Below the pieces are notes generated by a model. The model saw nothing but the letters and a program-made list of their open reading frames with translations. It did not search any database and was not told the origin of the DNA. The translations under genes and the position numbers were made by a program. Below, in pieces: positions 25,478 through 42,856 of a stretch of DNA of 64,000 nucleotides (position 1 is the first letter of the stretch; the number at the start of each line of letters is the position of its first letter). This stretch comes from Candidatus Enterousia sp. Its GTDB lineage: Bacteria; Pseudomonadota; Alphaproteobacteria; Rs-D84. The stretch lies in the NCBI GenBank assembly GCA_045630455.1, contig JAZQTD010000030.1, positions 50,422 through 114,421 on the forward strand, given 5' to 3'.

Positions 25478-25518
25478 GCGCCCTTAGCTCAGCTGGATAG
25501 AGCATCAGATTTCTAATC
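25478..25518 (+). pseudogene. 5' half of host tRNA-Arg(UCU), truncated in the anticodon loop (attL side)
   Basis: GCGCCCT-TA-GCTC-AGCTGGATA-GAGC-A-TCAGA-TTTCTAATC, after which tRNA similarity stops abruptly (GTTCGTAATTCTTATGG...). Confidence 0.85.
25508..25518. repeat. att core direct repeat, left copy (GATTTCTAATC)
   Basis: Identical 11-mer at 42810-42820. Both lie in the tRNA-Arg anticodon-loop sequence. Confidence 0.75.
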
Positions 25519-25646
25519 GTTCGTAATTCTTATGGATAGATTTGGATAAAGATGTATAAATGCTGGATTTGTGCGGGTGCGCGTGAAAATCAGTTCTGTA
25601 TAAAACTTGATACAGATTGATTGAATTATATGTAATTGTATGTATA

Positions 25647-25677
25647 ATGTTACATATTTGTTACATAGAATGTTACA
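25647..25677. repeat. arm-type repeat cluster, left (three GTTACA motifs)
   Basis: ATGTTACATATTTGTTACATAGAATGTTACA. The first 26 nt match 42715-42740 at 24 of 26 positions, in direct orientation. Confidence 0.6.
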
Positions 25678-25723
25678 CAGGAATTGGCCGCATATTTGCA
25701 CCGAATTCCACACAGTTGGTTAT

Positions 25724-25800
25724 GTGCCCATGGCTCAATCGGATAGAGCAATTGCCTTCTAAGCAATAGGTTGCAGGTTCGAGTCCTGCTGGGCACGCCA
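25724..25800 (+). tRNA. island-encoded tRNA-Arg (anticodon UCU)
   Basis: GTGCCCA-TG-GCTC-AATCGGATA-GAGC-A-ATTGC-CTTCTAA-GCAAT-AGGTT-GCAGG-TTCGAGT-CCTGC-TGGGCAC-G-CCA. All stems pair perfectly. A possible own promoter is TTGAAT(25621)-16-TATAAT(25643). Confidence 0.92.
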
Positions 25801-26003
25801 CTAATTTGTAAGTCAAAAAATACCTATGTTTCAATAAGTTGTTTTATGTTTTTTCTTGGCTTTGTGCCGATTGTTTAAGGTTTCTGTTGACTTTTTGTGA
25901 ATCATATATTATATTACACATGTAATAACTCCCTTGCGTGCAAGGGATGGGGGCTGAGGGGAAACCCAAATAAGCCCCAATTTTTTTAGTATGGGGTGAT
26001 GTC

Positions 26004-26678
26004 ATGACAGTGGTTCAACGAGTAGGTGTATACATAGACGGTAACAATTTATTTTATGGAGCATTGAAAAGGGATGAGCGCCGAAAATATCGTTGGCTTA
26101 ATCCAGAATTGTTGGTTCGTGAAGTTTGTGATAACTATTTTAAGAACAATCTGGTACATGTTCAATTTATAAAATTTTATACGGCGCGTGTTAGTAACCG
26201 TTCTGGTAATCTTGATGCGCCACGTAATCAGCAGTTATATTTTAACGCATTAAAAACCATTAAAAATTTAGAAATTATTCTTGGCAACTTTCAAGTACAT
26301 GAAAAAATTTTGCCTATAGCACCTTTGGAATACAAGCCTAATGGTAAGCCAAAGTTGCAAAGTGTTTTGTCAACCGAAGAAAAGGGTTCGGATGTTAATT
26401 TGGGCGTACATTTGGTATATGATGCTTGTATGGATAACATTGATGTGGCCATTGTTATTACTAATGACACTGATTTGGCAGAACCTATCAAATTGGTTGC
26501 GGATAATTTAGGTAAGACCGTCATAAATTTATGCCCGCATAAAAGTGTAGCGTTTTCATTAAAGAAAATTAAAAATGTTAAGCACTATAAAATAGAAACA
26601 GCACATTTAGCGAAGTCACAGTTTCCTGATAGTGTAAAAGGAATTATACGCCCATATCATTGGTCAGAAGAGAATTAG
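26004..26678 (+). CDS. NYN (LabA-like, PIN-related) domain protein, putative RNase
   Basis: 224 aa. Reads VGVYIDGNNLFYG ... EEKGSDVNLGVHLVYDA ... DVAIVITNDTDLAEPIKL, the conserved acidic NYN signatures. Confidence 0.8.
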   Translation: MTVVQRVGVYIDGNNLFYGALKRDERRKYRWLNPELLVREVCDNYFKNNLVHVQFIKFYTARVSNRSGNLDAPRNQQLYFNALKTIKNLEIILGNFQVHEKILPIAPLEYKPNGKPKLQSVLSTEEKGSDVNLGVHLVYDACMDNIDVAIVITNDTDLAEPIKLVADNLGKTVINLCPHKSVAFSLKKIKNVKHYKIETAHLAKSQFPDSVKGIIRPYHWSEEN

Positions 26679-26765
26679 CTCTTTTTGATTTATTTTTGTC
26701 TGTGGCAGTTTCTAATAACCTGTTGTACTGTATAATTTGTTTATGTGGTAAGTGTTCTCATCAAA

Positions 26766-27977
26766 TTATCCTGTTATCATGCTTGCAACATTGTTTGCGG
26801 TGCGACGTGCGGCAATACTTGATGCATGTGCGTATATTTCAGTTGTGGTGATTTTTGTGTGTCCCAATACGTCTTTTAATATTCGTATATCTTCGCCCAT
26901 GCTGGTGGCCAGTGTTGCAAAAGAATGGCGCAGGTCGTGTATACGCATCCGTGGTAATTTGGCACGATCCAATGCCCACCAGAACGCTTTACGCAAATCT
27001 GTCAATGGGCGCGTATGGTCGATTGGTGAATGAAATACATACTGTTTGCTTTTACAAATTCTCAATGCCTGTTTTATAACTTCTATTGCCGGATCGCCCA
27101 GCGGTACATTAAATGCATCTGTTTTGCGTTTATTTAAACGTAGATACCCGTTTTCTAGGTCTAACTCGTCCAGTTCCAGGCTTGTTATTTCCCCACTGCG
27201 ACAGCCTGTCAGTGCAAGTGTTTTAATAGCCAGGATGGTTTGCGGTGCATATTTCCCAGCGCAAAATGCCTCGTCCAGTGCAGTAAACAAACGTTTATAA
27301 CCATCAATGTCCAGAATCGTATGGTTCATCTTTGGGGATTTTGCCTTTTGAACCAAATGGCATGGATTTGAATTTATTGCGCGATAATTGTATTTTTCAC
27401 ACCAATTTAGAAAGGTCGATAATAACCGCATAACATGCAATCCAACTGCAATAGTTTTTGTGTTTTTGATTTTATCGTACATATCCTGGATTGTGCGCAG
27501 ATCAATATCTGCAATGTATTTATCGCCAAGATATGGGATTATATACAGGCGCATCAATATTTCGTTTGATCGATAGGTATTTCCCCGATTGTTTTCGCGA
27601 CAATGTTTTTCCATAAATATTGGGGTTAGTTCACGGACTTGTTTACGTCGTGCTGCGGCCATTTCGTTTTGCTTTATGCGTATGCGCTGTTCTGATTGCG
27701 GGTCCAGACCGTTGGCGATATCTTGTTTGGTTTGTATCGCACGTGCGCGAATCTCATTTAAGCTAAATTCCGTCAGCGTGCCCAATCTTATGTGCTTTTG
27801 TTGATATGAACCGCGAACGCGATATCCCAAATAGAACACTTTGCGTCCAGATGCGGCCGAATACCGGCATTGTAGCCCTGGCAGTGCTGCATCTGTTATT
27901 TGCAAATCAATGTCGGATTTCAGTTTGTTCAGAAATCCTGTTGTTAAAACCAACTTTTGACATTTAAGTGTCCGCAT
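26766..27977 (-). CDS. int: tyrosine-type site-specific integrase (P4-like, DUF4102-type arm-binding N-terminus)
   Basis: About 403 aa from ATG 27977. The N-terminus reads LTDAALPGLQCRYSAASGRKVFYLGYRVRG...IRLG. The catalytic region reads LTGCRSGEI ... HDLRHSFATL ... LGHTKITTTEIYAH (R-H-R-Y). Confidence 0.9.
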   Translation of the reverse strand: MRTLKCQKLVLTTGFLNKLKSDIDLQITDAALPGLQCRYSAASGRKVFYLGYRVRGSYQQKHIRLGTLTEFSLNEIRARAIQTKQDIANGLDPQSEQRIRIKQNEMAAARRKQVRELTPIFMEKHCRENNRGNTYRSNEILMRLYIIPYLGDKYIADIDLRTIQDMYDKIKNTKTIAVGLHVMRLLSTFLNWCEKYNYRAINSNPCHLVQKAKSPKMNHTILDIDGYKRLFTALDEAFCAGKYAPQTILAIKTLALTGCRSGEITSLELDELDLENGYLRLNKRKTDAFNVPLGDPAIEVIKQALRICKSKQYVFHSPIDHTRPLTDLRKAFWWALDRAKLPRMRIHDLRHSFATLATSMGEDIRILKDVLGHTKITTTEIYAHASSIAARRTANNVASMITG

Positions 27978-28306
27978 ATGTTGTCCTTTGTTATACACAA
28001 CATTGATAATAAAAGTGCACAAGTCCAGTGAATAAGATTATCAAGGTTCTTGTCTAACAATATGCATTCGTGCAGTTCCTTGTACACGGATTCCGTGTTG
28101 CCAAAGACCATCCATTCGTGTTGGTGCTGGTACCTGGCCCGGGATAATGCAAATGAATTTTTTATCCAGCTGAACTTCATTATCGATGTAGCAATCTGCT
28201 GAATATGTTCTTTGCTGTGCGTGCGTGGGTTGCGTGCAAACGGTTTTGTCAGATTGATGTCAAGGTACCGAACATCCAGTTTAAGATTTTTAAAGTCGAT
28301 TTTCAT
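27944..28306 (-). pseudogene. ParB-like nuclease N-terminal domain remnant
   Basis: MKIDFKNLKLDVRYLDINLTKPFARNPRTHSKEHIQQIATSI matches the ParB-N motif (..NPRTHS..QI..IA.SI). The remaining sequence has no similarity and overlaps the int start, so this is probably a truncated ParB-N/methylase gene. Confidence 0.4.
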
Positions 28307-28326
28307 TTTTCTTTCCTTTTCTTTCG

Positions 28327-28420
28327 TGCGGCATAATATGCGGCACACTGCGCCGCAGATGCCGCAAGCAAAAACCGCAGAAAACCGCCACTTTGTCAAA
28401 ACAAGTGCGGTCTGCGGTCT
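28327..28420. repeat. cluster of TGCGGC/GCCGCA and CTGCGGT short repeats (iteron/operator-like)
   Basis: TGCGGCataataTGCGGCacacTGCGCCGCAgatGCCGCA ... ACCGCAG ... GTGCGGTCTGCGGTCT, inside a 196-nt intergenic gap. Confidence 0.4.
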
Positions 28421-28502
28421 ATTTTTTAATTCTGTGTGTAGCAAGGTCTCGCGGTTGCCGTTACCCTCAATACGAAATGTCGTCACAGAACCTATTATGT
28501 TT

Positions 28503-29084
28503 TTATGTGAATTTTCCTTCATTCCTTATCCATCCTATGATTTGTGCTATTGTTTTTTCCTGACCCATACATTTGCGTTTCAATGATATTTGCCCGCTTT
28601 CCAGTTGTTCCGGTGTAAATTCATTGAATAGCGGAAATAAATTTGGGTTTCTTTCAATGATTTTTGATAGCGAAAATTCGTTGTCTATATGATATTTTGG
28701 CTCTCGTAATGGACTGAAAGAGGTTGTTAGTTTCTGAAGCAAATCATTCGTGTGGCGTTGCATTTCCTTGCTTTGTTTTATTGTGTTTGTACTGTACTTG
28801 TTATTTGCTATTGCGTCTGATTTCTGTCTGATATCTGATAATGTCTGTTTGATATCTGATGAATTCTGTTCGCCCCAACGTGCCAATCTGTTTGCCGCCA
28901 GCCGTTCACATTTTGCTTTATACTTAATGTCGTCCTCATCTAATTCGGCTTTTATAAATGGCCACACAGCGCTTGAACATTCCATGTCGGGGTATTTCAA
29001 AATCGCCATAAATATGTCGCCGCGTTCTTCGCGTGATATATTTTCCAATAAAAGCGCCCATTTCGGGTTGGCCAGCCGTTTCAT
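28503..29084 (-). CDS. hypothetical protein (island core)
   Basis: 193-aa ORF in the AlpA-to-int operon. No motif recognised with confidence. Confidence 0.5.
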   Translation of the reverse strand: MKRLANPKWALLLENISREERGDIFMAILKYPDMECSSAVWPFIKAELDEDDIKYKAKCERLAANRLARWGEQNSSDIKQTLSDIRQKSDAIANNKYSTNTIKQSKEMQRHTNDLLQKLTTSFSPLREPKYHIDNEFSLSKIIERNPNLFPLFNEFTPEQLESGQISLKRKCMGQEKTIAQIIGWIRNEGKFT

Positions 29085-29093
29085 AACCGTTTC

Positions 29094-29303
29094 CTATTGC
29101 TTGTCGCTTGTACGCTGGAATATGTTGTTTTGTTCAAATTCAGCTATATCTTGTTTCCGATATACAATGCGACCGACACGTTTCAGAAATTTTGGTCCAA
29201 CACCGGTGCTGCGCCATTTTTGTAAAGTATTGCGTTTCAATCCCCACATTTCAGCCAGCGCACGTTCCGTCATATATTCGTCCTTGGATAATATTGTTGT
29301 CAT
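29094..29303 (-). CDS. AlpA/excisionase-family helix-turn-helix protein
   Basis: 69 aa. MTERALAEMWGLKRNTLQKWRSTGVGPKFLKRVGRIVYRKQDIAEF is a MerR/AlpA-type HTH, typical of island Xis/regulator proteins. Confidence 0.7.
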   Translation of the reverse strand: MTTILSKDEYMTERALAEMWGLKRNTLQKWRSTGVGPKFLKRVGRIVYRKQDIAEFEQNNIFQRTSDKQ

Positions 29304-29464
29304 GGTTTGTCCTTTTGTTTCGGGTTTTGATAGGTCTATGTAAAGATATATGCATAAAAAATAACCGTGCGCAATGCACGTTTTTGCGACAAAAAGGAAA
29401 TTAAGTTAGTTTAGGTTACTTTACGGTATAAAAAGGTACGATATAAGTATACTGGTTAGTTTGT

Positions 29465-29917
29465 TTAGTGGTTTAATTTCCAAACCAGCGCATCGATTGC
29501 GTTGGTGTAACGACGACTGGCGGTCTGACGTAACAGCCCGGTCTTTTTGCCAATTTTATTCATTGATAAACCTATTGAGTGCAGAATCAATAATTTTCTA
29601 TCTGTGACACTGTCCACAGAATCTAACCAATGCACCAAAACATTATAAAAATTATCGTGTGTATTATCAAAGGGGGCTATATTTGGGGGCAATTTAACGT
29701 CTGCAATAACAGATTCAAACCATTCGTATCGAACAGAACATTCCGCTGGCCATGTTGCCAACATGTGTTGCCGTGTTTTGTCGTTTTTATCCATTTGAAT
29801 AGCAAGGATGACCGCAGAGTAAATTTGTGCCTCAACGCGCGCTCGTGTCCACTTTGTCTCATCGTCCAATTCTTCAAAAAAACGGTTAAGAATAACACGT
29901 CGATTATTATTTTTCAT
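29465..29917 (-). CDS. hypothetical protein with C-terminal sigma70-region-4/LuxR-like HTH
   Basis: 150 aa. C-terminus reads LLILHSIGLSMNKIGKKTGLLRQTASRRYTNAIDAL. Confidence 0.5.
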   Translation of the reverse strand: MKNNNRRVILNRFFEELDDETKWTRARVEAQIYSAVILAIQMDKNDKTRQHMLATWPAECSVRYEWFESVIADVKLPPNIAPFDNTHDNFYNVLVHWLDSVDSVTDRKLLILHSIGLSMNKIGKKTGLLRQTASRRYTNAIDALVWKLNH

Positions 29918-30109
29918 ACAGAGATCATACCCTATAATCCATAAAAATCAAGAAAAAGCAATAAAGTAAGAAGATTATTTTCAGATGCTCCAAAAAATCA
30001 ATCGTTTGAAAAATTGTGTCGCCGCCAGATACAACACAAAAAACGCATTTTCCTGCCCGCCCCAGCACAGGAATATGGCAAACGGTTTTGAAGTGTTGTG
30101 GGGATGTAC

Positions 30110-31372
30110 TTAACGGAATGACGTATTTTTATTCGGTTTAAACCTCCACGTCATTTCTGTTTTTCTTTTATTACATACCGAAAGATCATGACTTTCCCAT
30201 TTTTTTACTGTTGACCATACCTTATCAAAGAAAAAATCTTGATGTGCTCTTACGGCAAAAAAATCATTTTCTTCTTTGGAACTAGGCACAATATAAACCA
30301 TGGACAAGTTTCCAAAGGTTAAAAAAGCCCATAATTTTGGCAACTGTTGTTTAGATTTTGCTCGTTTCACAAAAACAATTAACTCTGGATATTCACATAG
30401 TTTATATTTTTTCGTTCGTATTTTAACTACTGGCAAAGTTCCCCAAAATTCATCTTTAGTAATCCAGTTAATGGTTTCGGTAAAATTGCCACAAAATAAT
30501 TCTGCATTTATAACGCTTAGAGCATATTTACATAATGTTTTATAAATATTTTGTGGTGTTATTGATAACCCTTTACACACAGGAATAGTTAACAAATCTT
30601 GTAAATGGTTAACAGGGCGTTTTATTGAAATTTTCAACTTTTTATCTAAATCCTTATCATCACGATACATTCTCACTTCTGAGTTAGACATTGTTGGTGT
30701 TCCTGTTTTCCCACACACATTAAAAAAGATACGACTTGGCAATATCCAGTTACCGAAATCCTGTTCTATACCATTTCCAAACTTCTCATTACATGTATCA
30801 CATTCTTCGTTTAGTATTATTTTTTTATTATTTAAAAACTCAGAAAAAGCATGAGCTTTATGCTTAAAACTCACTTCCGGCATAGATTTACCACAAAATC
30901 TGCATCTTCTTTTTTGTCGAATTCTTTCGCCTACTTTTATTTCGTTATCAGCGTAAAAAGAATAATAATTATAATTATCTAAACATTTCATTGGAAACGG
31001 CATTTTTATACTTACACCATTAAGCCGAGCTAAAATTTTGCGAATTTTTATTTCTCGCTTTTGTGGTATTTTACTTATATCAGAACAAACAAAGATATAT
31101 TCATTTATACTACATTCTTCTAAGAATGTCTTCACTGTCCACAGTTGTGGACAATTTGAAATATAATGATTGAAAAAAAACTCAAAATCTTGTTTTTGTT
31201 TCTCAGAATAGCGAAAAATTGGACATTTTAATTTATTGTTTTTTACTTGTAGCCCAAAAAGTTTATATAATTTTAATATAAATTCATACGTTTCTTTATT
31301 TGGTGCTACAGATAAACTGACTAATTTTTGGGTGGACATAAAGCATATAGATATATTGTTTTTACCATTCAT
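30110..31372 (-). CDS. HNH-like (HNH_5-type zinc-finger nuclease motif) protein, otherwise uncharacterised
   Basis: 420 aa, very AT-rich. The central CRFCGKSMPEVSFKHKAHAFSEFL...NEECDTCNEKFGNGIEQDFGNW matches the C..C...H....C..CN..fG..lE layout. The N- and C-terminal regions are unrecognised. Confidence 0.55.
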   Translation of the reverse strand: MNGKNNISICFMSTQKLVSLSVAPNKETYEFILKLYKLFGLQVKNNKLKCPIFRYSEKQKQDFEFFFNHYISNCPQLWTVKTFLEECSINEYIFVCSDISKIPQKREIKIRKILARLNGVSIKMPFPMKCLDNYNYYSFYADNEIKVGERIRQKRRCRFCGKSMPEVSFKHKAHAFSEFLNNKKIILNEECDTCNEKFGNGIEQDFGNWILPSRIFFNVCGKTGTPTMSNSEVRMYRDDKDLDKKLKISIKRPVNHLQDLLTIPVCKGLSITPQNIYKTLCKYALSVINAELFCGNFTETINWITKDEFWGTLPVVKIRTKKYKLCEYPELIVFVKRAKSKQQLPKLWAFLTFGNLSMVYIVPSSKEENDFFAVRAHQDFFFDKVWSTVKKWESHDLSVCNKRKTEMTWRFKPNKNTSFR

Positions 31373-31414
31373 ACCGAATTCCTTATCTTTTTAGCCATTA
31401 TAACATATATTATA

Positions 31415-31687
31415 TTAAGAACCTGTAAACACAATCCCAAACCATTTTTGCATGACGGTCAGGCGGGGTTGATAGTCGTTCGCAGAGTTGATTTCTGTTT
31501 CGTATTCGTGTTTTAGTTGTGCTGACAATCCAAGTTCACGCACCAGGTGATTGCACACACCCATAAGATAGAAGATATTGCCCGCCGGACCGCTCAGGTC
31601 AATGACTAGGCCTGTTTGATATCTCGCCCCCGGCACACCCCGCCGGGCGGCGTGCAGTTTCCGTTCCAGCGCATCAATCGTTTCCAT
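31415..31687 (-). CDS. hypothetical protein (GC-rich block)
   Basis: 90-aa ORF. Its start overlaps the stop of the 177-aa ORF by 14 nt. Confidence 0.45.
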   Translation of the reverse strand: METIDALERKLHAARRGVPGARYQTGLVIDLSGPAGNIFYLMGVCNHLVRELGLSAQLKHEYETEINSANDYQPRLTVMQKWFGIVFTGS

Positions 31688-32207: not shown

Positions 32208-32340
32208 GTTTTGCCTCTTGTTTTTTCAACATAACAATGCCAACAAAAAAAGGAATAGCCAGGGAAATAAAAATAATTTGTATTTACTTGAATAAAACGA
32301 AATATACGGCATATAGAACAACAAACCAAAGGAGTTTATT

Positions 32341-35274: not shown

Positions 35275-37806
35275 ATGGCAAAGAAAGTTATGTTTCCAGC
35301 ACGTCCTGATGCCAACCCAACTATTTATGCGTATTCGGACAAAAATCCACAATATGATGGCATGTTAAAGGTGGGCTACACTATAAAGTCCGCTGCAACC
35401 CGTGTGGCCGAACAATACCCCATACTAAAACCTGGCGATATTCCATATGTCATCCATGTGGACGAACCTGCCATTCGCAAGGACGGCTCGGTATTCACAG
35501 ACAAAGACGTCCATCGCATATTGCGAAACCGTGGCATTATTCAACTGCACGACAAAGACGGCAAGTTAACCGAATGGTTCCAATGCGACGTCAAAGACGT
35601 TATGGCGGCAATCACATCATTGCGCACAGGCACCGACCTGGAAACCCAGCGCACAGAAACATTTGCCATGCGCCCCGAACAGGCCGAAGCCGTTGAAAAA
35701 ACAATCGCTTATTTCAATGCTTGGCACCATGAAAACCCTGGTAAAACTCCGCACTTTTTGTGGAATGCCAAAATGCGTTTTGGTAAAACATTCGCCACAT
35801 ATCAACTGGCCAAACAAATGGGGTGGTCCAAGATATTGGTGCTGACATTCAAACCTGCGGTGCATCAGGCATGGGAAGAAGACCTGAACAGCCATTGTGA
35901 CTTTGACGGGTGGCAGTTTATTTCCAAAAAAGACAAAACAACCGAACAATTCATGGATGCGGTCAAACACCTGGACAGCAATCGCCCCATTGTGTGCTTT
36001 GGTTCATTCCAGGATTATCTGGGCAAAAATGATGCAGGCGGCATCAAGGCACAGAACGAATGGGTGCATGGCACAAACTGGGATTGTGTCGTATTTGACG
36101 AGTATCATTATGGCGCATGGCGTGAAAATGCCAAAGACCTGTTTGAAAACGAATCCAAAGCCGAACAAAAAAATGCCGCTGGCGAGGCTATGGACTATTT
36201 TGACGAGTCTAACATGCCAATCACCACAGGGCATTATTTATACCTGTCTGGCACCCCGTTCCGCGCCATAAACAGCGGCGAATTCATAGAAGAGCAAATT
36301 TATAACTGGACATATTCGGATGAACAGCGCGAAAAAGAAGAGTGGAAAGGTCCAAACAATCCGTATGCGGCTTTGCCACGCATGGTAATGATGACATATC
36401 AGTTGCCCGACACCATTCGCAATATCGCATTGGGTGGCGAATTTAACGAATTCAACCTTAATGAATTCTTTGCCGCCGATGGCGATGGGGAAAATGCCAA
36501 GTTCAAATATGAAAACGAAGTTCAAAAATGGCTGGACTTAATTCGTGGCCAGTTGGCAGAAACCACCCTGGACAGCCTGAAAATGGGCGCCAAGAAACCG
36601 CCAATGCCATTTGCAGACACACGCCTGTTGGGCATCCTGTCACATACAATATGGTTCCTGCCATCAATTGCGGCATGCAATGCCATGGCAAACCTGCTGA
36701 AACGCCGTCAAAACACATTTTACCATGATTATCGGGTAATTGTGGCCGCAGGCACGTCCGCTGGCGTTGGCATAAAAGCCCTGGCACCTGTGCAAGAGAA
36801 AATGGCCAACCCATTGGAAACAAAAACAATCACCTTGTCATGCGGCAAACTGATGACGGGGGTATCGGTTAAACCATGGTCTGGCATCTTTATGCTGTGC
36901 AACCTTAAAAGCCCAGAATCATATTTCCAGGCGGCATTCCGTGTTCAAACCCCATGGACAATCAAAAATCCAGACGGAGAACACCCAAATGCCACCCAAA
37001 TCATGAAAGAAGAGTGTTATATCTTTGACTTTGCGCCTGACCGTGCGTTGCGCCAAATCACAGATTATAGTTGCCGACTGAATGTAAATGAATCCGACCC
37101 AGAAAAGAAAGTTGCTGAATTTATTAACTTTTTGCCTGTATTGGCCTATGACGGCAGCGCCATGCGCCAAGTTAATGCCAGCGAAATTCTGGACATGGCA
37201 ATGAGTGGAACCAGCGCAACCCTGTTGGCACGCAGATGGGAAAGCGCATTGCTGGTAAATGTGGACAATGCGACCCTGTTGCGCCTTATGAACAACAAAG
37301 CGGCCATGGACGCACTTATGAGCATCGAGGGATTCCGCAGTTTGAATCAGGACATTGAAACGGTTATTAACAAGTCAAACGCCGTGAAAGAAAAGAAAGC
37401 AGCCGCCAATGAACGGGAATTGACCCCAAAAGAAAAGAAAGAAATGTCGGAAGAAGAAAAAGAATTCAAATCCGCACGCAAACGCATCCAGGAAAAACTG
37501 ATTAAGTTCGCAACCCGTGTGCCGATTTTCATGTATTTAACCGACTATCGTGAACGCAGTTTGAAAGACGTCATAACCCAATTGGAACCTGGGCTGTTTA
37601 AAAAGGTGACGGGGCTGGACGTAAAAGATTTTGAATTGCTGGTAAGTTTGGGTGTGTTCAACGATGCGCTTATGAACGATGCGGTGTATAAATTCAAACG
37701 CTATGAAGACGCCAGTTTGGAATATGCAGGCATTAACAAACACGCAGGTGAAAGCGTTGGATTATTCGACACAGTCCTAAGCCACGAAGATTACGAGATG
37801 ATGTAA
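35275..37806 (+). CDS. GIY-YIG/T5orf172-domain plus SF2 (ResIII/SNF2-like) helicase fusion, putative restriction subunit
   Basis: 843 aa. The N-terminal roughly 115 aa read IYAYSD...MLKVGYT...RVAEQ...DKDVHRIL...LTEWF (T5orf172/MUG113-like GIY-YIG fold). Helicase motif I AKMRFGKT, motif II VVFDEYHYG, motif III LYLSGTPF. The start is 4 nt after the MTase stop. Confidence 0.8.
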   Translation: MAKKVMFPARPDANPTIYAYSDKNPQYDGMLKVGYTIKSAATRVAEQYPILKPGDIPYVIHVDEPAIRKDGSVFTDKDVHRILRNRGIIQLHDKDGKLTEWFQCDVKDVMAAITSLRTGTDLETQRTETFAMRPEQAEAVEKTIAYFNAWHHENPGKTPHFLWNAKMRFGKTFATYQLAKQMGWSKILVLTFKPAVHQAWEEDLNSHCDFDGWQFISKKDKTTEQFMDAVKHLDSNRPIVCFGSFQDYLGKNDAGGIKAQNEWVHGTNWDCVVFDEYHYGAWRENAKDLFENESKAEQKNAAGEAMDYFDESNMPITTGHYLYLSGTPFRAINSGEFIEEQIYNWTYSDEQREKEEWKGPNNPYAALPRMVMMTYQLPDTIRNIALGGEFNEFNLNEFFAADGDGENAKFKYENEVQKWLDLIRGQLAETTLDSLKMGAKKPPMPFADTRLLGILSHTIWFLPSIAACNAMANLLKRRQNTFYHDYRVIVAAGTSAGVGIKALAPVQEKMANPLETKTITLSCGKLMTGVSVKPWSGIFMLCNLKSPESYFQAAFRVQTPWTIKNPDGEHPNATQIMKEECYIFDFAPDRALRQITDYSCRLNVNESDPEKKVAEFINFLPVLAYDGSAMRQVNASEILDMAMSGTSATLLARRWESALLVNVDNATLLRLMNNKAAMDALMSIEGFRSLNQDIETVINKSNAVKEKKAAANERELTPKEKKEMSEEEKEFKSARKRIQEKLIKFATRVPIFMYLTDYRERSLKDVITQLEPGLFKKVTGLDVKDFELLVSLGVFNDALMNDAVYKFKRYEDASLEYAGINKHAGESVGLFDTVLSHEDYEMM

Positions 37807-37889
37807 AAAACAGCATTTAATCTATGGATTTTTAAGGATTTCTGTACTAGGATTTACTTGGTAAAAAGTCACCAAGGAATGTTATTGTT

Positions 37890-38573
37890 ATGGAATTTGA
37901 CAATCGCGATATAGAAATCCCGAATGCCATCATATCGATGGAGAATTTTTATGCACAAAATTTGGGACCAAAACGTAAAAAAATTTGTGAAATTCTTAGA
38001 ACCTTTAGCGATGATGCCGTCAACATATATTTAGCAGGCGTTGCTGCATTAGAAATTCCTAATTTTCCGGCCAAGCAATCTATTATTGGACATTGTTTCA
38101 GGGAGTTAATAAATGCCCTTGTAAGATCTGACGAAAACGAATTAAAGCAACAAGTGTTCACGGCTTTAAAATCTGCTGAATTTATAAGAAACAGTGAAAG
38201 CAAAAACGAACGCATTGAGCATGTAGTTAACGAAATATGGGAAAAGATAAAACCCTTAAATAATGAGACTTCAAAATTAAAAACAATGTTTATAGATAAA
38301 AATCCAAAACAAAAAAAAGATTTACTATTTTCTGATATAGAAACACGAAAAAAAACACAAAAAAATATAGATGATGTTATTCAGCAGGTTTTGACTGCGA
38401 AAGGGAATCTTGATAAAAGAAGACACTTTAATAAAAAATTTTCTATAATACCCAATGAACAGTTGATTGAAAACGTAACCATATTAGAAAATTATATTTT
38501 ACAATTAGAAGATCCAACATATATAAAACAAAAAGGGATGTTAGATGAAATCTTGGAAACAGCCAACTCCTGA
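37890..38573 (+). CDS. hypothetical protein (227 aa, predicted alpha-helical)
   Basis: AT-rich ORF 84 nt downstream of the helicase gene. No recognisable catalytic motif. Its 3' end overlaps the next ORF by 29 nt. Confidence 0.55.
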   Translation: MEFDNRDIEIPNAIISMENFYAQNLGPKRKKICEILRTFSDDAVNIYLAGVAALEIPNFPAKQSIIGHCFRELINALVRSDENELKQQVFTALKSAEFIRNSESKNERIEHVVNEIWEKIKPLNNETSKLKTMFIDKNPKQKKDLLFSDIETRKKTQKNIDDVIQQVLTAKGNLDKRRHFNKKFSIIPNEQLIENVTILENYILQLEDPTYIKQKGMLDEILETANS

Positions 38574-41427
38574 ACAGGTTTGTTTTGTTACAAATAGCAT
38601 GAAAGGGAACCTTAAAAGTTACTTCCTTTCTAGACTAGAAAATCCATTGTGGTTTCAGCCTTTGTATGACGAACATCTATTAGATTTCTCAAAAAAGTAT
38701 GCTGATGAGATACAAGATTATATATATTCATGGGATGCTTTACCATACTTATCAAGAATGGCGTCCATAATTCCAGAACAAGTTTTTGCACTCATAGAAC
38801 CTTTAGTAAATGCAATAAAAGACGCTTCAATTGAATCACCTTGGTTGGTTAAAGTAATCGTATTATCAATAGCTAAAGAAATGCCAGATACGCAATTTAA
38901 AGCCATTATGACGGCGTTCACATCATATATTTATAAAACACCATTTATCGATTTGTTTGATTTTACAACATTAAAATCTAATTTAATTAGATTTAAGAGA
39001 CTTGATCCTGCACAAGCTTTGAATTTGACAGAAGCGTTATTATCGTTGCAAATAAAATATGTTGGGGAATATGGTTCTACAGAAGTTGTGTCTAAATATG
39101 GAGACAATGATTATTATAGATACCAAGAGATGTTGAAAATTTTTCAAGAAATCTACAACAAACAAAAATTAAAACTATTTTCTGTTTTGGTTAAAATCTT
39201 TGATGATACAATTTATAAAACTTGCACACAAGAAGAACGAGAGAAATACGATAATTCTGTGTATATGGATCGTCCTGCTATAGAGAATAGCGAACAAAAT
39301 CATAATTTTTCTGGTCCAGAACACTTTGCAATAGATGCGATGCGCGACATTGCATCGTCCATAATATCCACAAATAAAAAAGACGAGGCCAATAAAGTTT
39401 TTGATCTGCTACAAAATTCTAAATCGCCCATCCTTGTGAGATTATACTTGTTTTTATTATCCGTGACTGATGTTTGTGACAAAAAAATCTTATCAGAAAG
39501 CTTGACGAATTATGAATTTTTTGATGGCCTAAATTATCACCATGAATACTTCCATTTGTTGAATAAAAAATTCAAAAAATTATCCAAAACAGCTCAATCT
39601 GTTATTCTCAAATATATTGAGGATGGCCCAACTGGTGATTATTACAAAAATAGTGAAGATAGCACTTCTGCAAAAGAACGTCAAAATCGTTGGAAGTTTA
39701 AACACTTGATACCTATATTAGGCTCTTTAACAAAAAAACAAAAGGAACGATTTAAAGATATATTGTTTGATGATACTGGGAACCCTATCATGCCAGGAGA
39801 CCACCCAGACTTTCTAACATGGATGAGTGGTTTTATAACTGTAAGACATGAATCTCCTTTAAAATCAGAAGAAATTCAAAACTCAAGCGTTGCAAAAATA
39901 ATTAAAACAATGCAAGAATGGCAACCTGCGCCTGATAATTGGCACGGCAAGCCGGACAGAGAAGGTTTTGCTGAAGCTATCAAACAGGATGTCTTAAATA
40001 CCCCCAAAAAGTACATATCTTCGCTCGGTAAATTAACAACTATAACTGAACCAACATACATTAGAGCCATTTTGCGCGGCATTATAGAATCTGGCTCAAA
40101 AACATCTGATGACTGGGTAAAAATTATTGATTTTATTGATTGGGTTGCAAAACAAAATGAAACATTTGATGATAGAAAAAGTTTTCATGACGGTGACCAA
40201 GATTGGTATTGGACAAAACAAGAAGTTGCTTCGTTGTTAAATTCTGCTTTTGTAAAAGATTCTAGTATAGATAAAACAGACGAACAATTGATTGAAAAAT
40301 CTTTCGATATTCTATATTCCTTGATAAATTCTGAAGACAAATTACTTGAAAATAAAAAAGATGAGGTTTGTTCTGGAGATAATTACATAAATAGAGCTAT
40401 TAACTCTGTTCATGGCCAAGCTTTGGATTCGTTATTAACTTTTGCTCTATGGTTAAAGAACAACAGCAAGTCAACAAATCAGGTAGAAGCATTATTAACC
40501 GATATTGTACAACGCCCCAAATATATTGACTCCCTTGCTATAATTGCTCGTGCTCTACCGTGGGTACATTTGTCTATGCCGGAATTTACTGAAAAAAATA
40601 TCGATATTCTTTTCCCGGAATCAAAAGAATACCAGTATATTTTAGATGTAACATGGCCAACTTTTGTTCTGTATACACGTGCATATGAAGACATGTTCTA
40701 TCTTATGAAAGAGAAATTTTGTTATGTGTTAAAAAAACATTTGTATATTGATCAAGATAAAAAACGTACAGATAAACAAATTGCCCGTCACCTAATGCTC
40801 TACTATGCTTGGGGATTGTATGACTTAGATTCTGAAATTTTATCTCTTCTTTTTGACGATATGGCAAATAAAGAAGAAATGGTGTCTTTTGTAAATCTTA
40901 TCGGTTTTATGCTATATCAAGTTAAATCGGATAACGATAATGTTTCAGATGAAATGATCCAACGTTTTATAGATTTTTGGGAATGGTTTATTGAGCATAT
41001 AAAGGGCAAAGAATCCGATTACAAAGATGTATTAAAGGAATTTGAGCGATGGTATCAATGCGGAAAATTCACAAAAGGAAACTGGGGTTTAAAACATTTG
41101 CATAGATTGGTAGCAGATGATAATCTGAAAATATCCATGTCTAATTTTATGTTAGAAGAGACTTTGGTCAGCGATTTATCAGAGAATCCCAGACTGGTAT
41201 TTGATATTGTTTCAAGGTTGGCTTTTAGAGGTGCAAGATTCGATTCTTTCAGAAGGAATGGGCTTATAGAACAAACTCTTGAATATATAAAAAATCATGA
41301 TTTTCCGGAAGACGAGACATTAAAAAGCGAAAAAGATGACTTTATAAGTAAATTATTACAAAATGCCGATTCTTGGGAATTAGACGATGCGTCTGCAAGA
41401 TTTGAAAAATATAGAGAAGATAGATAA
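38545..41427 (+). CDS. large hypothetical protein (960 aa, predicted helical-repeat)
   Basis: Uninterrupted 2.9-kb ORF in very AT-rich DNA. I see no Walker A/B, HNH, PD-(D/E)xK or other motif. Confidence 0.65.
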   Translation: MKSWKQPTPEQVCFVTNSMKGNLKSYFLSRLENPLWFQPLYDEHLLDFSKKYADEIQDYIYSWDALPYLSRMASIIPEQVFALIEPLVNAIKDASIESPWLVKVIVLSIAKEMPDTQFKAIMTAFTSYIYKTPFIDLFDFTTLKSNLIRFKRLDPAQALNLTEALLSLQIKYVGEYGSTEVVSKYGDNDYYRYQEMLKIFQEIYNKQKLKLFSVLVKIFDDTIYKTCTQEEREKYDNSVYMDRPAIENSEQNHNFSGPEHFAIDAMRDIASSIISTNKKDEANKVFDLLQNSKSPILVRLYLFLLSVTDVCDKKILSESLTNYEFFDGLNYHHEYFHLLNKKFKKLSKTAQSVILKYIEDGPTGDYYKNSEDSTSAKERQNRWKFKHLIPILGSLTKKQKERFKDILFDDTGNPIMPGDHPDFLTWMSGFITVRHESPLKSEEIQNSSVAKIIKTMQEWQPAPDNWHGKPDREGFAEAIKQDVLNTPKKYISSLGKLTTITEPTYIRAILRGIIESGSKTSDDWVKIIDFIDWVAKQNETFDDRKSFHDGDQDWYWTKQEVASLLNSAFVKDSSIDKTDEQLIEKSFDILYSLINSEDKLLENKKDEVCSGDNYINRAINSVHGQALDSLLTFALWLKNNSKSTNQVEALLTDIVQRPKYIDSLAIIARALPWVHLSMPEFTEKNIDILFPESKEYQYILDVTWPTFVLYTRAYEDMFYLMKEKFCYVLKKHLYIDQDKKRTDKQIARHLMLYYAWGLYDLDSEILSLLFDDMANKEEMVSFVNLIGFMLYQVKSDNDNVSDEMIQRFIDFWEWFIEHIKGKESDYKDVLKEFERWYQCGKFTKGNWGLKHLHRLVADDNLKISMSNFMLEETLVSDLSENPRLVFDIVSRLAFRGARFDSFRRNGLIEQTLEYIKNHDFPEDETLKSEKDDFISKLLQNADSWELDDASARFEKYREDR

Positions 41428-42246
41428 TTATGCTTTTTTAGCTGATGCTGGTGTTAAACCTTCTGTTGCGAGTGGTTTGATATGTAATATATGATCGCCG
41501 TGTTGTTTAAGAACGAAACAGACATTTAGTAATGAATTCAAAACAGTTTGCAAAACCGCCGCCCTAGCATATTTACTTTCATCTTCTTGAAAAGATTGAC
41601 TTGTTGCAAAAAATCTTCTTACCAAATATGGCGAAAAGTGTTTATAGCCACAAAACAGTTGATAATTTTCGTAGTTTATATCTTTGTTTTCATAATATGC
41701 AATCAACTCTGGTGTGTCTTGAATTGACTCTAAAACAAGCTTGAAATAATCTTCTGATATGTTTTGTATCGTATCTCCGTACCACTTTTTGTTGTAACTG
41801 TTACGATCAAGCCTATTTGGATTCTTAAGGCTTTTACGAAGGAATCTATCACAATTATTTTGATTCAGTAATTCTAAAACCCTATCTTTACGATCTGGGT
41901 GTACACGTAACATTTCTATTTGTTCAACATATCCAAAATCTATAAAATCTTTACCCCTGGTATTAAAATGCTTGTTTAACCATAGCAGTTGTATTTCAGC
42001 TTCTAAAATTTGACACGTAATGGAACTAGCCACAAAAACTCTGTTATTTTGCAAAGCATCATAAACCTCTGCCGACAGAGAAATAATAGCCCCCACCAAA
42101 CTATGTAGCCCCATAAGAGCCTTGTCTTTTGTAGCCTGAGGGTGAAATGATTCCATGGTGCGAACCATCATCCTTAATTTTTTCATTAAGATGTCTACGT
42201 CATCATTCTTTAACGGATGTGGCAATGGATATTCTTTGTTTAACAT
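41428..42246 (-). CDS. hypothetical protein, DUF5677/AbiV-like (tentative)
   Basis: 272 aa. The segment SSITCQILEAEIQLLWLNKHFNTRGKDFIDFGYVEQIEMLR resembles the R.l.E..i.l.yl core I associate with DUF5677/AbiV-type helical proteins. This is from recollection only. It converges on the 960-aa ORF, and the two stop codons abut. Confidence 0.4.
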   Translation of the reverse strand: MLNKEYPLPHPLKNDDVDILMKKLRMMVRTMESFHPQATKDKALMGLHSLVGAIISLSAEVYDALQNNRVFVASSITCQILEAEIQLLWLNKHFNTRGKDFIDFGYVEQIEMLRVHPDRKDRVLELLNQNNCDRFLRKSLKNPNRLDRNSYNKKWYGDTIQNISEDYFKLVLESIQDTPELIAYYENKDINYENYQLFCGYKHFSPYLVRRFFATSQSFQEDESKYARAAVLQTVLNSLLNVCFVLKQHGDHILHIKPLATEGLTPASAKKA

Positions 42247-42345
42247 TTCATCCTCGTGTTATTGTAAAATTATGCATATTTTTGTTGAATTTGTAAAGGT
42301 TATGATTTGTTACTGTTGATCCGGTAGCAACGATTTGGAAATGCG

Positions 42346-42690
42346 TTGGTTCGTGCAAATTATCAAAAATTGGACAAGAATATTCCTTATACAATGGAAT
42401 ATTTGAATAAGTTCTTTGGCAATTTGCTGTTGGGCGAGAAAAATCGCCTTGATAATCGTGAAATGCAGATAAAGGAAAATGTGGCAAAAACTACCCGGAA
42501 AACTACCCAGAAAACTGCCCAGAAAATTTTGGATATATTGTCGAAGAATCCAAGTGTAACACGTACCGAATTGGCCAGCACAACGGGGCTTAGCCCGGAT
42601 GGAGTAAAGTGGAATCTGGACAAATTGAAAAAGACCGGGAAAATTCGCCGTATCGGTCCAGATCGTGGCGGTCATTGGGAAGTTGTGTAG
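42346..42690 (+). CDS. winged-helix DNA-binding fragment (C-terminal part of a RecG-like/AlbA_2-type putative regulator)
   Basis: TTRKTTQKTAQKILDILSKNPSVTRTELASTTGLSPDGVKWNLDKLKKTGKIRRIGPDRGGHWEVV is the typical C-terminal wHTH of those proteins. The N-terminal domain is missing, so this is probably a remnant. A real start could be ATG 42463. Confidence 0.45.
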   Translation: MVRANYQKLDKNIPYTMEYLNKFFGNLLLGEKNRLDNREMQIKENVAKTTRKTTQKTAQKILDILSKNPSVTRTELASTTGLSPDGVKWNLDKLKKTGKIRRIGPDRGGHWEVV

Positions 42691-42714
42691 CGTTTTATGT
42701 GCATTTCTACAAAA

Positions 42715-42740
42715 ATGTTACATATTTGCTACATAGTATG
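42715..42740. repeat. arm-type repeat, right copy
   Basis: ATGTTACATATTTGCTACATAGTATG. 24 of 26 positions match 25647-25672, in direct orientation, 70 bp inside the right junction. Confidence 0.6.
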
Positions 42741-42809
42741 GAATTTGTAATATGGGAAAAATGGTGCAAATGGGCGGAAATTAGGCAAACAATCGGTTTG
42801 GGGTCAGAC

Positions 42810-42856
42810 GATTTCTAATCTGCAGGTCACAGGTTCGAATCCTGTAGGGCGTGCCA
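42810..42856 (+). pseudogene. 3' half of host tRNA-Arg(UCU) (attR side)
   Basis: GATTTCTAATC-TGC-AGGTC-ACAGG-TTCGAAT-CCTGT-AGGGCGT-G-CCA. There is no matching 5' acceptor strand upstream. It pairs with the 5' half at 25478-25518. Confidence 0.85.

Follow-up and report, generated by a model that had tools for sequence, protein, structure and literature searches.

Results

A tRNA-Arg(UCU) gene interrupted by an island

The window analysed here is a 64,000-nucleotide stretch of contig JAZQTD010000030.1 from Candidatus Enterousia sp., in which ARAGORN called only two tRNAs, a tRNA-Pro at 18830-18906 and a tRNA-Arg(tct) at 25724-25800. The latter lies within an island of about 17.3 kb (25519-42820), and the two halves of another tRNA-Arg(UCU) gene flank this island. 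The features at the island ends are as follows.

25439-25467, plus strand: promoter-like site of the host tRNA, TTGAAT-17-TAAAAT (consensus scan, 9 of 12 matches)
25478-25518, plus strand: 5′ half of the host tRNA-Arg(UCU), positions 1-40, with the left core copy at its end
25508-25518, plus strand: left core copy, 11 bp, GATTTCTAATC
25519-25723, plus strand: left arm of the element, the P′ arm of attP, 205 bp
25724-25800, plus strand: tRNA-B, the element-borne replacement tRNA-Arg(UCU) (ARAGORN; Rfam tRNA model)
42338-42809, plus strand: right arm of the element, the P arm of attP, with two arm-type repeats
42810-42820, plus strand: right core copy, 11 bp, GATTTCTAATC
42821-42856, plus strand: 3′ half of the host tRNA-Arg(UCU), positions 41-76 (100% identical to L001:138-173)

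When 25478-25518 and 42821-42856, which lie 17.3 kb apart, were joined, ARAGORN called a 77-nt tRNA-Arg(tct) whose acceptor stem was paired at 7 of 7 positions, G1-U72 included. The joined tRNA also contained a single U27-C43 mismatch that was absent from the account in an earlier note on this DNA. Taken alone, neither junction yielded a tRNA call by ARAGORN; the left junction had no match to the Rfam tRNA covariance model, and the right junction matched it only as a T-arm fragment (15.3 bits, E=3.8). An empty site was found in the metagenome contigs L001, L002, and L003, which carry an uninterrupted tRNA at the same locus and encode a TspO protein identical to that of the window. The tRNA in these contigs is exactly the joined halves, with the U27-C43 mismatch included, and the 5′ half is 100% identical to L001:97-137. 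Given these empty-site alleles, the joining of the halves into one tRNA exceeds chance. The earlier note had proposed that the halves were one gene, that neither junction was intact, and that the island supplied a different, intact tRNA-Arg(UCU); all of this is borne out, as are its coordinates for the halves, the 11-mer copies, the 205-bp gap, the intact tRNA, and the promoter-like site. The outcome of the ARAGORN check that it proposed (one intact Arg-TCT, with the halves uncalled) was also as predicted. The conditions that it named as refuting did not arise, given the uninterrupted allele, the lack of a covariance-model match at the left junction, and the recurrence of the layout in 20 further left junctions (below).

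A motif resembling 25439-25467 was found upstream of the intact tRNA in L001, and we consider that this site probably acts as the host tRNA promoter, now placed upstream of an orphaned 5′ half. Separately, tandem 152-bp units were observed behind the tRNA 3′ end (42838-43160), each opening with a copy of the 19 nt that end the tRNA.

Architecture of the attachment site

The core corresponds to tRNA positions 30-40, covering the anticodon loop together with the 2 bp of stem that flank it at either side. [quoted passage not shown] In this left arm, arm-type repeats occur three times in direct orientation, TGTTACATA at 25648 and 25659 and TGTTACACA at 25671, and all elements checked have them at the same distances from the core, +140, +151, and +163. 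The right arm has TGTTACATA at 42716 and TGCTACATA at 42727, and the window, L018, and L021 agree in the offsets of these repeats from the core (-94 and -83); between the right arm and the right end of L021, identity is 84%. A search for the excised circle, or attP junction, gave 0 matches in viral contigs and 0 in metagenome contigs, a weak negative because just 5 copies of the element left end are present in the metagenome collection.

The element-borne tRNA-B is nearly invariant

tRNA-B begins 205 bp after the left core and scored 73.4 bits against the Rfam tRNA model over 25724-25797. Its anticodon arm, GCCTTCTAAGC, does not contain the core. The anticodon loops of tRNA-B and the host tRNA differ solely at position 32, and all five anticodon-stem pairs and loop position 32 of tRNA-B differ from those of every host variant. 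When 17 elements were compared, only 4 of the 77 columns of tRNA-B were variable (by position, in the D-loop and T-loop), versus 69 of 205 in the left arm; the 100 nt 3′ of tRNA-B did not align across elements. Such near-invariance relative to the adjacent arm argues strongly for constraint on tRNA-B. Moreover, tRNA-B was present wherever sequence adjacent to the left junction existed, being cut by the contig end in L093.

The left arm also contains a promoter-like site of its own, TTGAAT-16-TATAAT, at 25621-25648 (10 of 12 consensus matches), which was kept in 17 of 17 aligned elements. The earlier note had placed tRNA-B downstream of the still-present host tRNA promoter; the host site does persist, but tRNA-B need not depend on it. 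tRNA-B is probably expressed and needed by its host. Genomes of these hosts are mostly below 1 Mbp (PMC12306168), and the host presumably has no second tRNA-Arg(UCU). AGA codons are rare in host ORFs (2.2 per 1000), a point against the replacement reading; in island ORFs, by a crude ORF set, they reach 10.5 per 1000 codons, about 5 times the host value.

Genes of the island

The genes between tRNA-B and the right arm, together with the cargo that extends into that arm, are listed below.

26004-26678, plus strand: NYN-domain protein (Pfam NYN, 2.6e-07; PADLOC HEC-09, 8.2e-34)
26766-27977, minus strand: tyrosine integrase, 403 aa, with an N-terminal arm-DNA-binding domain
28503-29084, minus strand: DUF6291 backbone gene (Pfam DUF6291, 3e-07)
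29094-29303, minus strand: excisionase-like HTH_17 protein, 69 aa, AlpA/Xis type (Pfam HTH_17, 4.5e-09)
29465-29917, minus strand: conserved backbone gene (weak DUF6362 match; phrog_6836)
30110-31372, minus strand: HNH_5 endonuclease-domain protein (Pfam HNH_5, 1.7e-07; phrog_26663)
31415-32207, minus strand: two backbone genes, 90 aa and 177 aa (phrog_1933 and phrog_8020, uncharacterised families)
32341-32937, plus strand: small serine recombinase of the resolvase/invertase type, cargo (Pfam Resolvase, 5.5e-31)
33033-37806, plus strand: restriction-modification-like cargo, three ORFs, namely the next three entries
33033-33713, plus strand: methyltransferase fragment
33703-35271, plus strand: Eco57I-type methyltransferase (Pfam Eco57I, 8.9e-35)
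35275-37806, plus strand: T5orf172 and ResIII helicase protein (Pfam T5orf172, ResIII)
37890-42675, both strands: further cargo, with 227-aa and 960-aa proteins on the plus strand and the DUF5677 and 121-aa proteins on the minus strand
41428-42246, minus strand: the DUF5677 gene (Pfam family)

The integrase, whose start codon was picked to fit 403-aa homologues, matched Pfam Phage_integrase (1.4e-23), Arm-DNA-bind_3 (2e-10), and Phage_int_SAM_3, and its residues R260, H347, R350, H373, and Y382 were invariant in 18 homologues. The block 28422-29980 is conserved at 93-95%. Within it, the DUF6291 gene adjoins the HTH_17 gene, as it does in L005, L007, and L012, and the homologous small gene was called HTH_17 in related loci too; the HTH_17 protein of the island is a putative recombination directionality factor. 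The pair of 90-aa and 177-aa genes is likewise kept in L016, L017, L018, L021, and L035. The HNH_5 gene is variable, being absent from the complete element L018 (12.35 kb, core-bounded), where the alignment shows a gap.

The slot between tRNA-B and the integrase, occupied in the window by the NYN gene, holds cargo that differs among elements; HEC-09 is a candidate defence family of PADLOC. The PADLOC type IIG model PDLC03626 matched both large proteins of the restriction-modification-like cargo (4.7e-43 and 3e-35). No family in Pfam, PADLOC, or PHROGs was found for the 227-aa, 960-aa, and 121-aa proteins. Searches of Pfam and PHROGs found no capsid, portal, terminase, tail, or lysis genes in the complete element; tRNA-B was absent from the viral contig collection, and that collection held no relatives of the integrase above 39% identity. 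By these measures the island does not qualify as a temperate bacteriophage, and it is on such negative evidence that we call it non-phage.

Recurrence across hosts and in a sister lineage

The layout of the window was shared by 20 further left junctions, from 15 species-level genomes and 5 metagenome contigs, the hosts being gut Alphaproteobacteria (Candidatus Enterousia and relatives). Ten distinct host 5′ halves were represented, and in 21 of 21 left junctions the host half closed with GATTTCTAATC. The backbone was 93-95% identical between genomes whose host flanks either did not align or were about 80% identical, which is evidence of mobility. Clean pairing of one 3′ half with all ten host 5′ halves was not obtained; the best single 3′ half adds one acceptor-stem mismatch in just 4 of the 10 variants, and any host-range benefit of dispensing with it is probably modest.

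A sister integrase lineage, at 59-62% identity, uses the same split-and-replace layout. Its complete element L034 (11.5 kb) is bounded by the core TTTCTAAT, and the halves join into a tRNA-Arg. In L007 and L008 (integrase 62% identical), the host tRNA-Arg is split and unrestored, and a full tRNA copy is present; the anticodon arm of the L007 element tRNA is the same as that of the window's host tRNA (tRNA-A). This lineage was found in a Muribaculaceae MAG. Related integrases (35-43% identity) located at tRNA-Asn follow the conventional mode, in which the repeat is 45-46 nt long and runs from tRNA position 31/32; they provide an internal control for the non-restoring mode.

Elements adjoining a complete host tRNA

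Near-identical elements in L026 and L029 adjoin a complete host tRNA and contain neither tRNA-B nor the arm repeats; L013 is probably in the same state. The element in this state, which directly follows the tRNA, was 99.6% identical over 4 kb to one of the split state, with an identical integrase protein and no left arm. The split-and-replace arrangement is thus not the sole state of the element family. Fast, perhaps programmed, switching between the state with split tRNA plus tRNA-B and the state with complete host tRNA is conceivable, though we regard it as rather unlikely.

Discussion

The host tRNA gene is split, related contigs hold the empty site, the island carries an intact tRNA, and its ends have an attP-like layout; the arrangement recurs across species, with tRNA-B conserved. 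We consider it very probable that a defence island has integrated here in the manner of tRNA-dependent lysogeny, with the host tRNA split and tRNA-B as its substitute. In this scheme, a tyrosine integrase, probably that encoded in the window, would recombine the attachment site of the element with the anticodon loop of the host tRNA-Arg(UCU), the element and host sharing only the 11-bp core GATTTCTAATC. Because the element carries no tRNA 3′ half, the host gene is left split at both junctions. While the element is integrated, tRNA-B, behind the promoter-like site in the element arm, would supply AGA decoding, and the host gene would be made whole again by precise excision, in which the excisionase-like HTH_17 protein probably helps. 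The likely benefit is that an 11-bp core match would suffice, with no need for a 3′ half fitted to the 5′ half of each host.

Several other readings were weighed. That the island is a conventional, tRNA-restoring one whose left junction has decayed, with its 3′ half lost and tRNA-B an unrelated piece of cargo, appears very improbable. Restoring islands with related integrases do occur in the same kinds of genomes (at tRNA-Asn), and L026 and L029 show near-identical elements beside a complete host tRNA. However, all 21 left junctions, across 10 tRNA variants, pass from the core into the same arm with no trace of a 3′ half, an identity that independent decay would not produce; the arm repeats keep fixed offsets as in a working attP, and each of these elements has tRNA-B, conserved to a much higher degree than the sequence on either side of it. 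A different proposal, put forward in the earlier note, was that the element may make itself hard to lose. Read as an addiction device, tRNA-B would replace the sole host tRNA-Arg(UCU), destroyed on entry, so that loss of the island would be lethal. The host gene is indeed non-functional while the island is integrated, the constraint on tRNA-B is strong, a single host copy is likely in such small genomes, and deletion of tRNA-B without precise excision would be penalised. This proposal nevertheless fails for the usual route of loss, since conservative excision by a tyrosine recombinase restores the host gene exactly and carries no penalty; related strains hold empty sites with an intact gene, and the element retains an excisionase-like gene. 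The penalty would fall only on imprecise deletions that take the island tRNA with them, and addiction as the main role of tRNA-B seems improbable.

Slightly less improbable, but still doubtful, is the idea that tRNA-B is kept mainly for its own properties, either nuclease resistance or AGA/AGG decoding, with non-restoration as a secondary relaxation. The AGA frequency of the island (10.5 versus 2.2 per 1000 codons in the host), the divergence of the five anticodon-stem pairs and position 32 from every host variant, and the setting in a defence island would all suit it, and the same anti-nuclease idea has been raised in published discussion (PMC10865867) as well as in the earlier note. Against this, neither the island nor the window as a whole yielded an anticodon nuclease, the two anticodon loops are distinguished by one position, the L007 element tRNA carries the anticodon arm of the window's host tRNA-A, and the ORFs used for codon counting were a crude set. 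We give a similarly small chance to the island being a degraded or satellite temperate phage, which would make this a literal case of tRNA-dependent lysogeny. Its integrase, excisionase, and attP layout are phage-like, a size of 11-17 kb fits a satellite, and several backbone proteins match PHROG families, all uncharacterised, one with a ParB-like N-terminus. Such an origin is opposed by the failure to find structural, packaging, or lysis genes with Pfam or PHROGs, by the viral contig searches described above, and by the presence of defence genes in the variable regions.

Integration with replacement of the host tRNA, as favoured here, was published as "tRNA-dependent lysogeny" by Guerrero-Bustamante and Hatfull (mBio 2024) for mycobacterial phages, with Fionnbharth, Cain, LeBron, Gaia, and others as actinobacteriophage examples (PMC10865867). 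The earlier note was right that the arrangement is unusual, but this experimentally characterised precedent exists. In both systems the tyrosine integrase has an arm-type DNA-binding domain, arm-type sites flank the attP core on both sides, and the attB lies within a host tRNA gene, as is evident here from the joining halves and the uninterrupted gene in L001-L003. In both the core is short (about 8-17 bp; 11 bp here and 8 bp in the sister lineage), and a common core of this length means that no tRNA is rebuilt at either junction, as ARAGORN and Rfam indicated for attL and attR of the window. The element tRNA has the same anticodon as the host target, and close relatives vary in whether the host tRNA stays intact. 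The present element differs in being an 11-17 kb island with defence cargo, no recognisable phage genes, and no lysogeny, in residing in reduced-genome gut Alphaproteobacteria of the order Rs-D84 (and, for the sister lineage, a Muribaculaceae MAG), and in using tRNA-Arg(UCU) as its target, whereas the published table lists Lys-TTT, Ile2-CAT, and Leu-CAA. Moreover, experiments in that system demonstrated that the element tRNA is needed, whereas here the need is deduced.

Islander-type islands and prophages also insert site-specifically by a tyrosine integrase, with crossover at the anticodon loop (a sublocation of Williams 2002), an integrase gene near the tRNA end, and, at the opposite end, the displaced 3′ fragment of the tRNA. 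The window island has the direct tRNA repeat at both ends (11 bp) and the internal tyrosine integrase. By definition, however, an Islander-type island brings the 3′ part of its target tRNA with it, so that one junction again holds an intact gene (PMC4383910); in the window island neither junction does. Outside Actinobacteria, Lj965 of Lactobacillus johnsonii and phage-related sequences of Sinorhizobium meliloti are reported to leave the host tRNA unrebuilt and to carry a cognate tRNA that replaces it (PMC11476347, PMC12429752), as does the island. Those are prophages or phage-related and come from few genomes, whereas no phage genes were found here and one family accounts for more than 20 junctions with 10 host tRNA variants. 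What the present case adds to a published mechanism is its use by a non-phage island, in a new clade of hosts and at a new tRNA target.

For annotation, island finders that demand a regenerated tRNA and a displaced fragment will miss such elements, and the element tRNA will be labelled as the host's own tRNA-Arg(UCU). The cassettes of integrase, attP, and tRNA could be developed into integration vectors for organisms so far beyond the reach of genetic engineering. Should the complete-tRNA state arise by a second recombination route that regularly uses the 3′ end of the tRNA, or by the element and its host swapping tRNA genes, islands would drive the turnover of an essential tRNA gene across species of reduced-genome gut bacteria, and the relation between restoring and non-restoring modes, left open in the 2024 paper, would be readable from these pairs. 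That paper also asked how common tRNA-dependent lysogeny is beyond actinobacteriophages (PMC10865867). The present family is a widespread one of small defence islands that show no phage genes, in uncultured gut Alphaproteobacteria with genomes below about 1 Mbp, and its entry into ten versions of the target tRNA through an 11-bp match supports the view that an element bringing a complete tRNA of its own need not match the tRNA of each host.

The split host tRNA gene and its empty site

Analysis of the whole window with ARAGORN called two tRNAs, tRNA-Pro at 18830-18906 and tRNA-Arg(tct) at 25724-25800; the latter, carried by the island, is referred to here as tRNA-B. As the earlier note had expected, this was the one intact Arg-tct gene, and the two halves of the host tRNA-Arg(UCU) gene (tRNA-A) were not called. 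The 5' half of tRNA-A occupies 25478-25518, its last 11 nt being GATTTCTAATC, and the segment at 42810-42856 opens with the same 11-mer GATTTCTAATC and continues into the tRNA 3' half. When the halves were spliced, ARAGORN recognized a 77-nt tRNA-Arg(tct) with a completely paired acceptor stem and a single mismatch, U27-C43, in the anticodon stem, whereas no tRNA was called from the left or the right junction taken singly. With the Rfam tRNA covariance model, tRNA-B (25724-25797) scored 73.4 bits and the right junction yielded a T-arm fragment only (15.3 bits, E=3.8). The left junction, where the earlier note had allowed that a functional tRNA might yet be encoded, had zero match to this model. 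The central reading of that note, that the host gene is split and unrestored while the island supplies an intact tRNA-Arg(UCU), therefore stands, given that neither junction encodes a tRNA and tRNA-B is intact.

The empty site was sought among contigs encoding exactly the TspO protein to the right of the island (43756-44229), which returned four short metagenome contigs. A complete 77-nt tRNA was present in the empty-site contigs L001 and L003, and L002 retained the last 66 nt, truncated by the contig end. These tRNAs were identical to the joined halves, the U27-C43 mismatch included, and were followed by the same downstream genes as in the window. The uninterrupted allele that had been predicted thus exists, and, together with the ARAGORN call on the joined sequence, it bears out the assignment of both halves to one tRNA-Arg(UCU) gene. 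It also defines the insertion as 17,302 bp (25519-42820, one core copy counted), exactly bounded by the 11-bp direct repeat. Exact-protein look-ups with the left-flank ORF (24523-25164) and with the two ORFs nearest the right arm returned no further contigs.

Two further observations concern tRNA genes in the window. At 42838-43160, after the split tRNA, there are two tandem 152-bp units and a third partial copy, each unit opening with the terminal 19 nt of that tRNA (AATCCTGTAGGGCGTGCCA) ahead of a 133-nt insert. This insert lacks any match in Rfam, but its folding is much better than that of shuffled sequence (z = -4.68). One such unit is present in L001-L003, and L029, a locus with a complete host-type tRNA, has an analogous insert of different sequence; the unit could represent a small element with the 3' end of this tRNA as its target, or what is left of such an element. 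In addition, a near match to the 11-bp core, identical at 10 positions, is provided by GATTTCTAATA at 18945-18955, 39 nt beyond tRNA-Pro. With a chance expectation of about 0.1 for such matches in the window, it could be a coincidence or a secondary attachment site.

Structure and cargo of the island

Features of the island

25519-25723: left arm, 205 bp, inward from the left core
25724-25800: tRNA-B, next after the left arm
Beyond tRNA-B, before the integrase: NYN-domain gene, matching the PADLOC candidate defence family HEC-09
Strand opposite to the NYN-domain gene: tyrosine integrase, 403 aa, with an N-terminal arm-DNA-binding domain
After the integrase: DUF6291 gene, conserved backbone
29094-29303: HTH_17 excisionase-like gene, 69 aa, conserved backbone
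Several further conserved-backbone genes, function not assigned by family
32.3-42.3 kb: cargo, comprising a small serine recombinase, a split type IIG-like methyltransferase and helicase system, and uncharacterised genes

The integrase residues R260, H347, R350, H373, and Y382 were invariant among 18 homologues. Both cores are accompanied by direct repeats of the TGTTACATA type, with offsets of +140, +151, and +163 relative to the left core and of -94 and -83 relative to the right core; judged by sequence, this is the layout expected for arm-type integrase sites flanking an attP core. The G+C content of the island is 38.7%, compared with 41.8-42.8% in the flanks. Between tRNA-B and the integrase lies a cargo slot that varies among related elements from 30 bp in L020 (11209-11239) to 9.7 kb in L017 (11209-20933), and in the window this slot (25800-26766) is occupied by the NYN/HEC-09 gene. 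Pfam and PHROGs searches detected no capsid, portal, terminase, tail, or lysis genes in the island. Moreover, a viral contig collection contained neither tRNA-B nor a close relative of the integrase, the best integrase match being 39% identical. From its gene content, the island does not look phage-like.

Recurrence of the element and constraint on tRNA-B

Many relatives of the window integrase were found, and a scan with one genome per species gave 79 loci, whose hosts are uncultured gut Alphaproteobacteria, many of them Candidatus Enterousia, from ruminants, horses, and humans. A Bacteroidetes host, at first suggested by the AT-richness of the DNA, was rejected on this evidence. Integrases 91-98% identical to that of the window were encoded at 22 of the 79 loci. 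In 15 of these genomes a host tRNA-Arg(UCU) 5' half ends in GATTTCTAATC, the arm follows directly, and tRNA-B lies 203-205 bp inward; metagenome contigs supplied five extra left junctions of the same layout. Island-bearing assemblies include JAZTYU01, JAWPOE01, JAFSDI01, and JAWPOG01. Together with the window, these 21 junctions contain 10 distinct host 5' halves. In these, the acceptor stem reads GCGCCC plus T, A, or G, or else GCACCCG, the anticodon stem reads TCAGA, ACAGA, or TCGGA, and the D-arm varies as well. One contig (L018) holds an entire 12.35-kb element that extends from the host 5' half through the right-hand core, and the right junction in L021 bears yet another host 3' half. Given that the window shares a backbone of 93-95% identity with genomes in which the host flanks are unalignable or only about 80% identical, these comparisons indicate that the element moves horizontally between species. 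The junction expected of an excised circle or tandem attP (right arm-core-left arm) had no match in viral or metagenome contigs, collections that hold very few element copies: when the left end was sought as a control, irrespective of the sequence preceding it, only five copies were recovered, all ordinary left junctions.

Across 17 aligned elements, 4 of the 77 columns of tRNA-B were variable, and their positions fall within the D-loop and T-loop. In the adjacent arm 69 of the 205 columns varied, and the 100 nt following tRNA-B were unalignable. tRNA-B is thus under strong constraint. A promoter-like site, TTGAAT-16-TATAAT, is located within the arm (25621-25648) and is kept in all 17 arms, with TATAAT or TAAAAT as the -10 element; the host promoter at 25439-25467 is therefore not necessarily required for tRNA-B. 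Between the two, no terminator-like site was found, so read-through from the host promoter could still occur. When crude sets of ORFs of at least 250 aa were compared, AGA made up 10.5 per 1000 codons (23% of Arg codons) in the island (25519-42810) and 2.2 per 1000 (5% of Arg codons) in host ORFs of the flanks, about a fivefold excess, and the island may thus also benefit from its own AGA-decoding supply.

Related elements at tRNA genes

A sister lineage, with integrases 59-62% identical to that of the window, is represented by L007 and L008 from metagenomes and by L034 from a Muribaculaceae MAG. In these elements, too, the host tRNA-Arg(UCU) is cut in the anticodon loop and unrestored, and a full tRNA-Arg(UCU) is carried, here directly after the integrase on the same strand. 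In L034, about 11.5 kb lies between the two halves, which have the 8-bp core TTTCTAAT in common and together form a tRNA-Arg(tct); the phylum of this host depends on MAG binning. The idea that the divergent anticodon stem of tRNA-B guards against self-targeting by the integrase is not general, being contradicted by this lineage: the anticodon arm of the L007 element tRNA is that of tRNA-A in the window, and the L034 element tRNA includes the core of its own element.

More distant integrases (35-43% identical) from the same genome set belong to conventional restoring islands at tRNA-Asn(GTT), with a complete tRNA at one end and, at the other, a 45-46-nt direct repeat from tRNA position 31/32 (L048, 2800-2845 and 17193-17268; L088, 4281-4325 and 20249-20324). 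The crossover position is the same as in the window island, but these islands share a long segment with the host gene and restore it. At several other loci, a tRNA-Asn lies about 650 bp upstream of the integrase. Other arrangements were also seen. At L009 (11563-11610; also L010 and L011), a tRNA-Arg 3' half beginning in the anticodon loop (CCTTCTAATCCGCAGG...) lies 240 bp downstream of a 53%-identical integrase on the same strand, and the orientation of the element to the tRNA is reversed relative to the window; no complete tRNA was found within 10 kb on either side. At L005 (11213-12300; also L006), where the integrase is 69% identical, an IS1595-family transposase fragment comes next, and no tRNA or tRNA fragment lies within 10 kb; this could reflect a disrupted junction or a different target.

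Loci with integrases 91-92% identical to that of the window raise a separate question. At L026 (12135-12211; from contig JBKSMS010000004.1) and L029 (11435-11511; from contig CAJOGC010000004.1), a complete host-type tRNA-Arg(UCU) in its native context is directly followed by the element, and L013 (4050-4078), with a host-type tRNA 3' end, probably has the same arrangement. After the CCA end, these loci continue with the element sequence that follows tRNA-B in a twin element, and they contain no left arm, tRNA-B, or arm repeats. L012, with tRNA-B, and L013 are 99.6% identical over 4,077 nt and encode an identical integrase protein. A separate integrase subclade was dropped as an explanation, since these integrases are interspersed among those of replacement-type elements, in which the host tRNA is split and tRNA-B supplied. 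Chimeras of a host 5' part and a tRNA-B 3' part, arising by deletion or a T-arm crossover, were likewise rejected, the acceptor 3' strand and anticodon stem being fully host-type. Assembly artefacts were discounted because the shared tRNA sequence is too short for misjoins and three independent assemblies make the same switch exactly at the CCA end. These loci may be true restoring relatives, may have arisen when an element re-inserted at the 3' end of the tRNA, or may have been produced by recombination of tandem elements. A composite locus, L027 (4573-6239), has a host-type tRNA 3' part at the contig end, a terminator, 1.66 kb of sequence, and a 16-nt tRNA match, CAACAGATTTCTAATC, to which the left arm, tRNA-B, and integrase are attached; the arrangement resembles what would result if a replacement-type element had entered the displaced fragment of an older restoring element.

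Discussion

The split gene, the empty site, the intact element tRNA, the attP-like architecture, the recurrence of the element, and the constraint on tRNA-B are established. Because the integrase is the island's sole tyrosine recombinase, the only other recombinase being a small resolvase-type enzyme, we infer that it made the junctions. In the mechanism that we propose, the integrase would recombine attP with the anticodon loop of the host tRNA-Arg(UCU) gene through the 11-bp core, tRNA-B would complement the split gene while the island is integrated, and conservative excision would rebuild the host gene. We also infer that tRNA-B is expressed and needed; given that genomes of the host clade are mostly below 1 Mbp (PMC12306168), a single host tRNA-Arg(UCU) gene is likely. 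Overall, we consider this explanation very probable.

Under the Islander rule, sequences inside an island restore the disrupted tRNA gene (PMC4383910), whereas the window island leaves it unrestored. Precedent is provided by tRNA-dependent lysogeny as defined by Guerrero-Bustamante and Hatfull (mBio 2024; PMC10865867), in which a tyrosine integrase with an arm-type domain acts within a host tRNA gene through a core about 8-17 bp long. [quoted passage not shown] Those authors also reported that closely related phages differ on whether the gene is restored, cited prophage Lj965 as an earlier case, and left prevalence elsewhere open (PMC10865867); an analogous substitution by phage-related sequences has been described in Sinorhizobium (PMC11476347, PMC12429752). 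The window island agrees with tRNA-dependent lysogeny in every feature that can be read from sequence, but it is not phage-like, and its target, tRNA-Arg(UCU), and its host clade are new.

The earlier suggestion that the element makes itself hard to lose appears weak, because excision of the conservative kind would return an intact host gene, empty sites exist, and the excisionase-like gene is kept; a penalty would fall on imprecise deletions alone. Independence from the host tRNA sequence is a plausible advantage for the element, and no single element-borne 3' half would pair cleanly with all 10 host 5' halves. Any effect on host range would be modest, since the best candidate 3' half adds one acceptor-stem mismatch in only 4 of the 10 variants. 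As the mechanism is already known, the novelty is confined to the element type, the host clade, and the target tRNA, and the value of these elements lies in the breadth of the family and in its closely related pairs that differ in layout.
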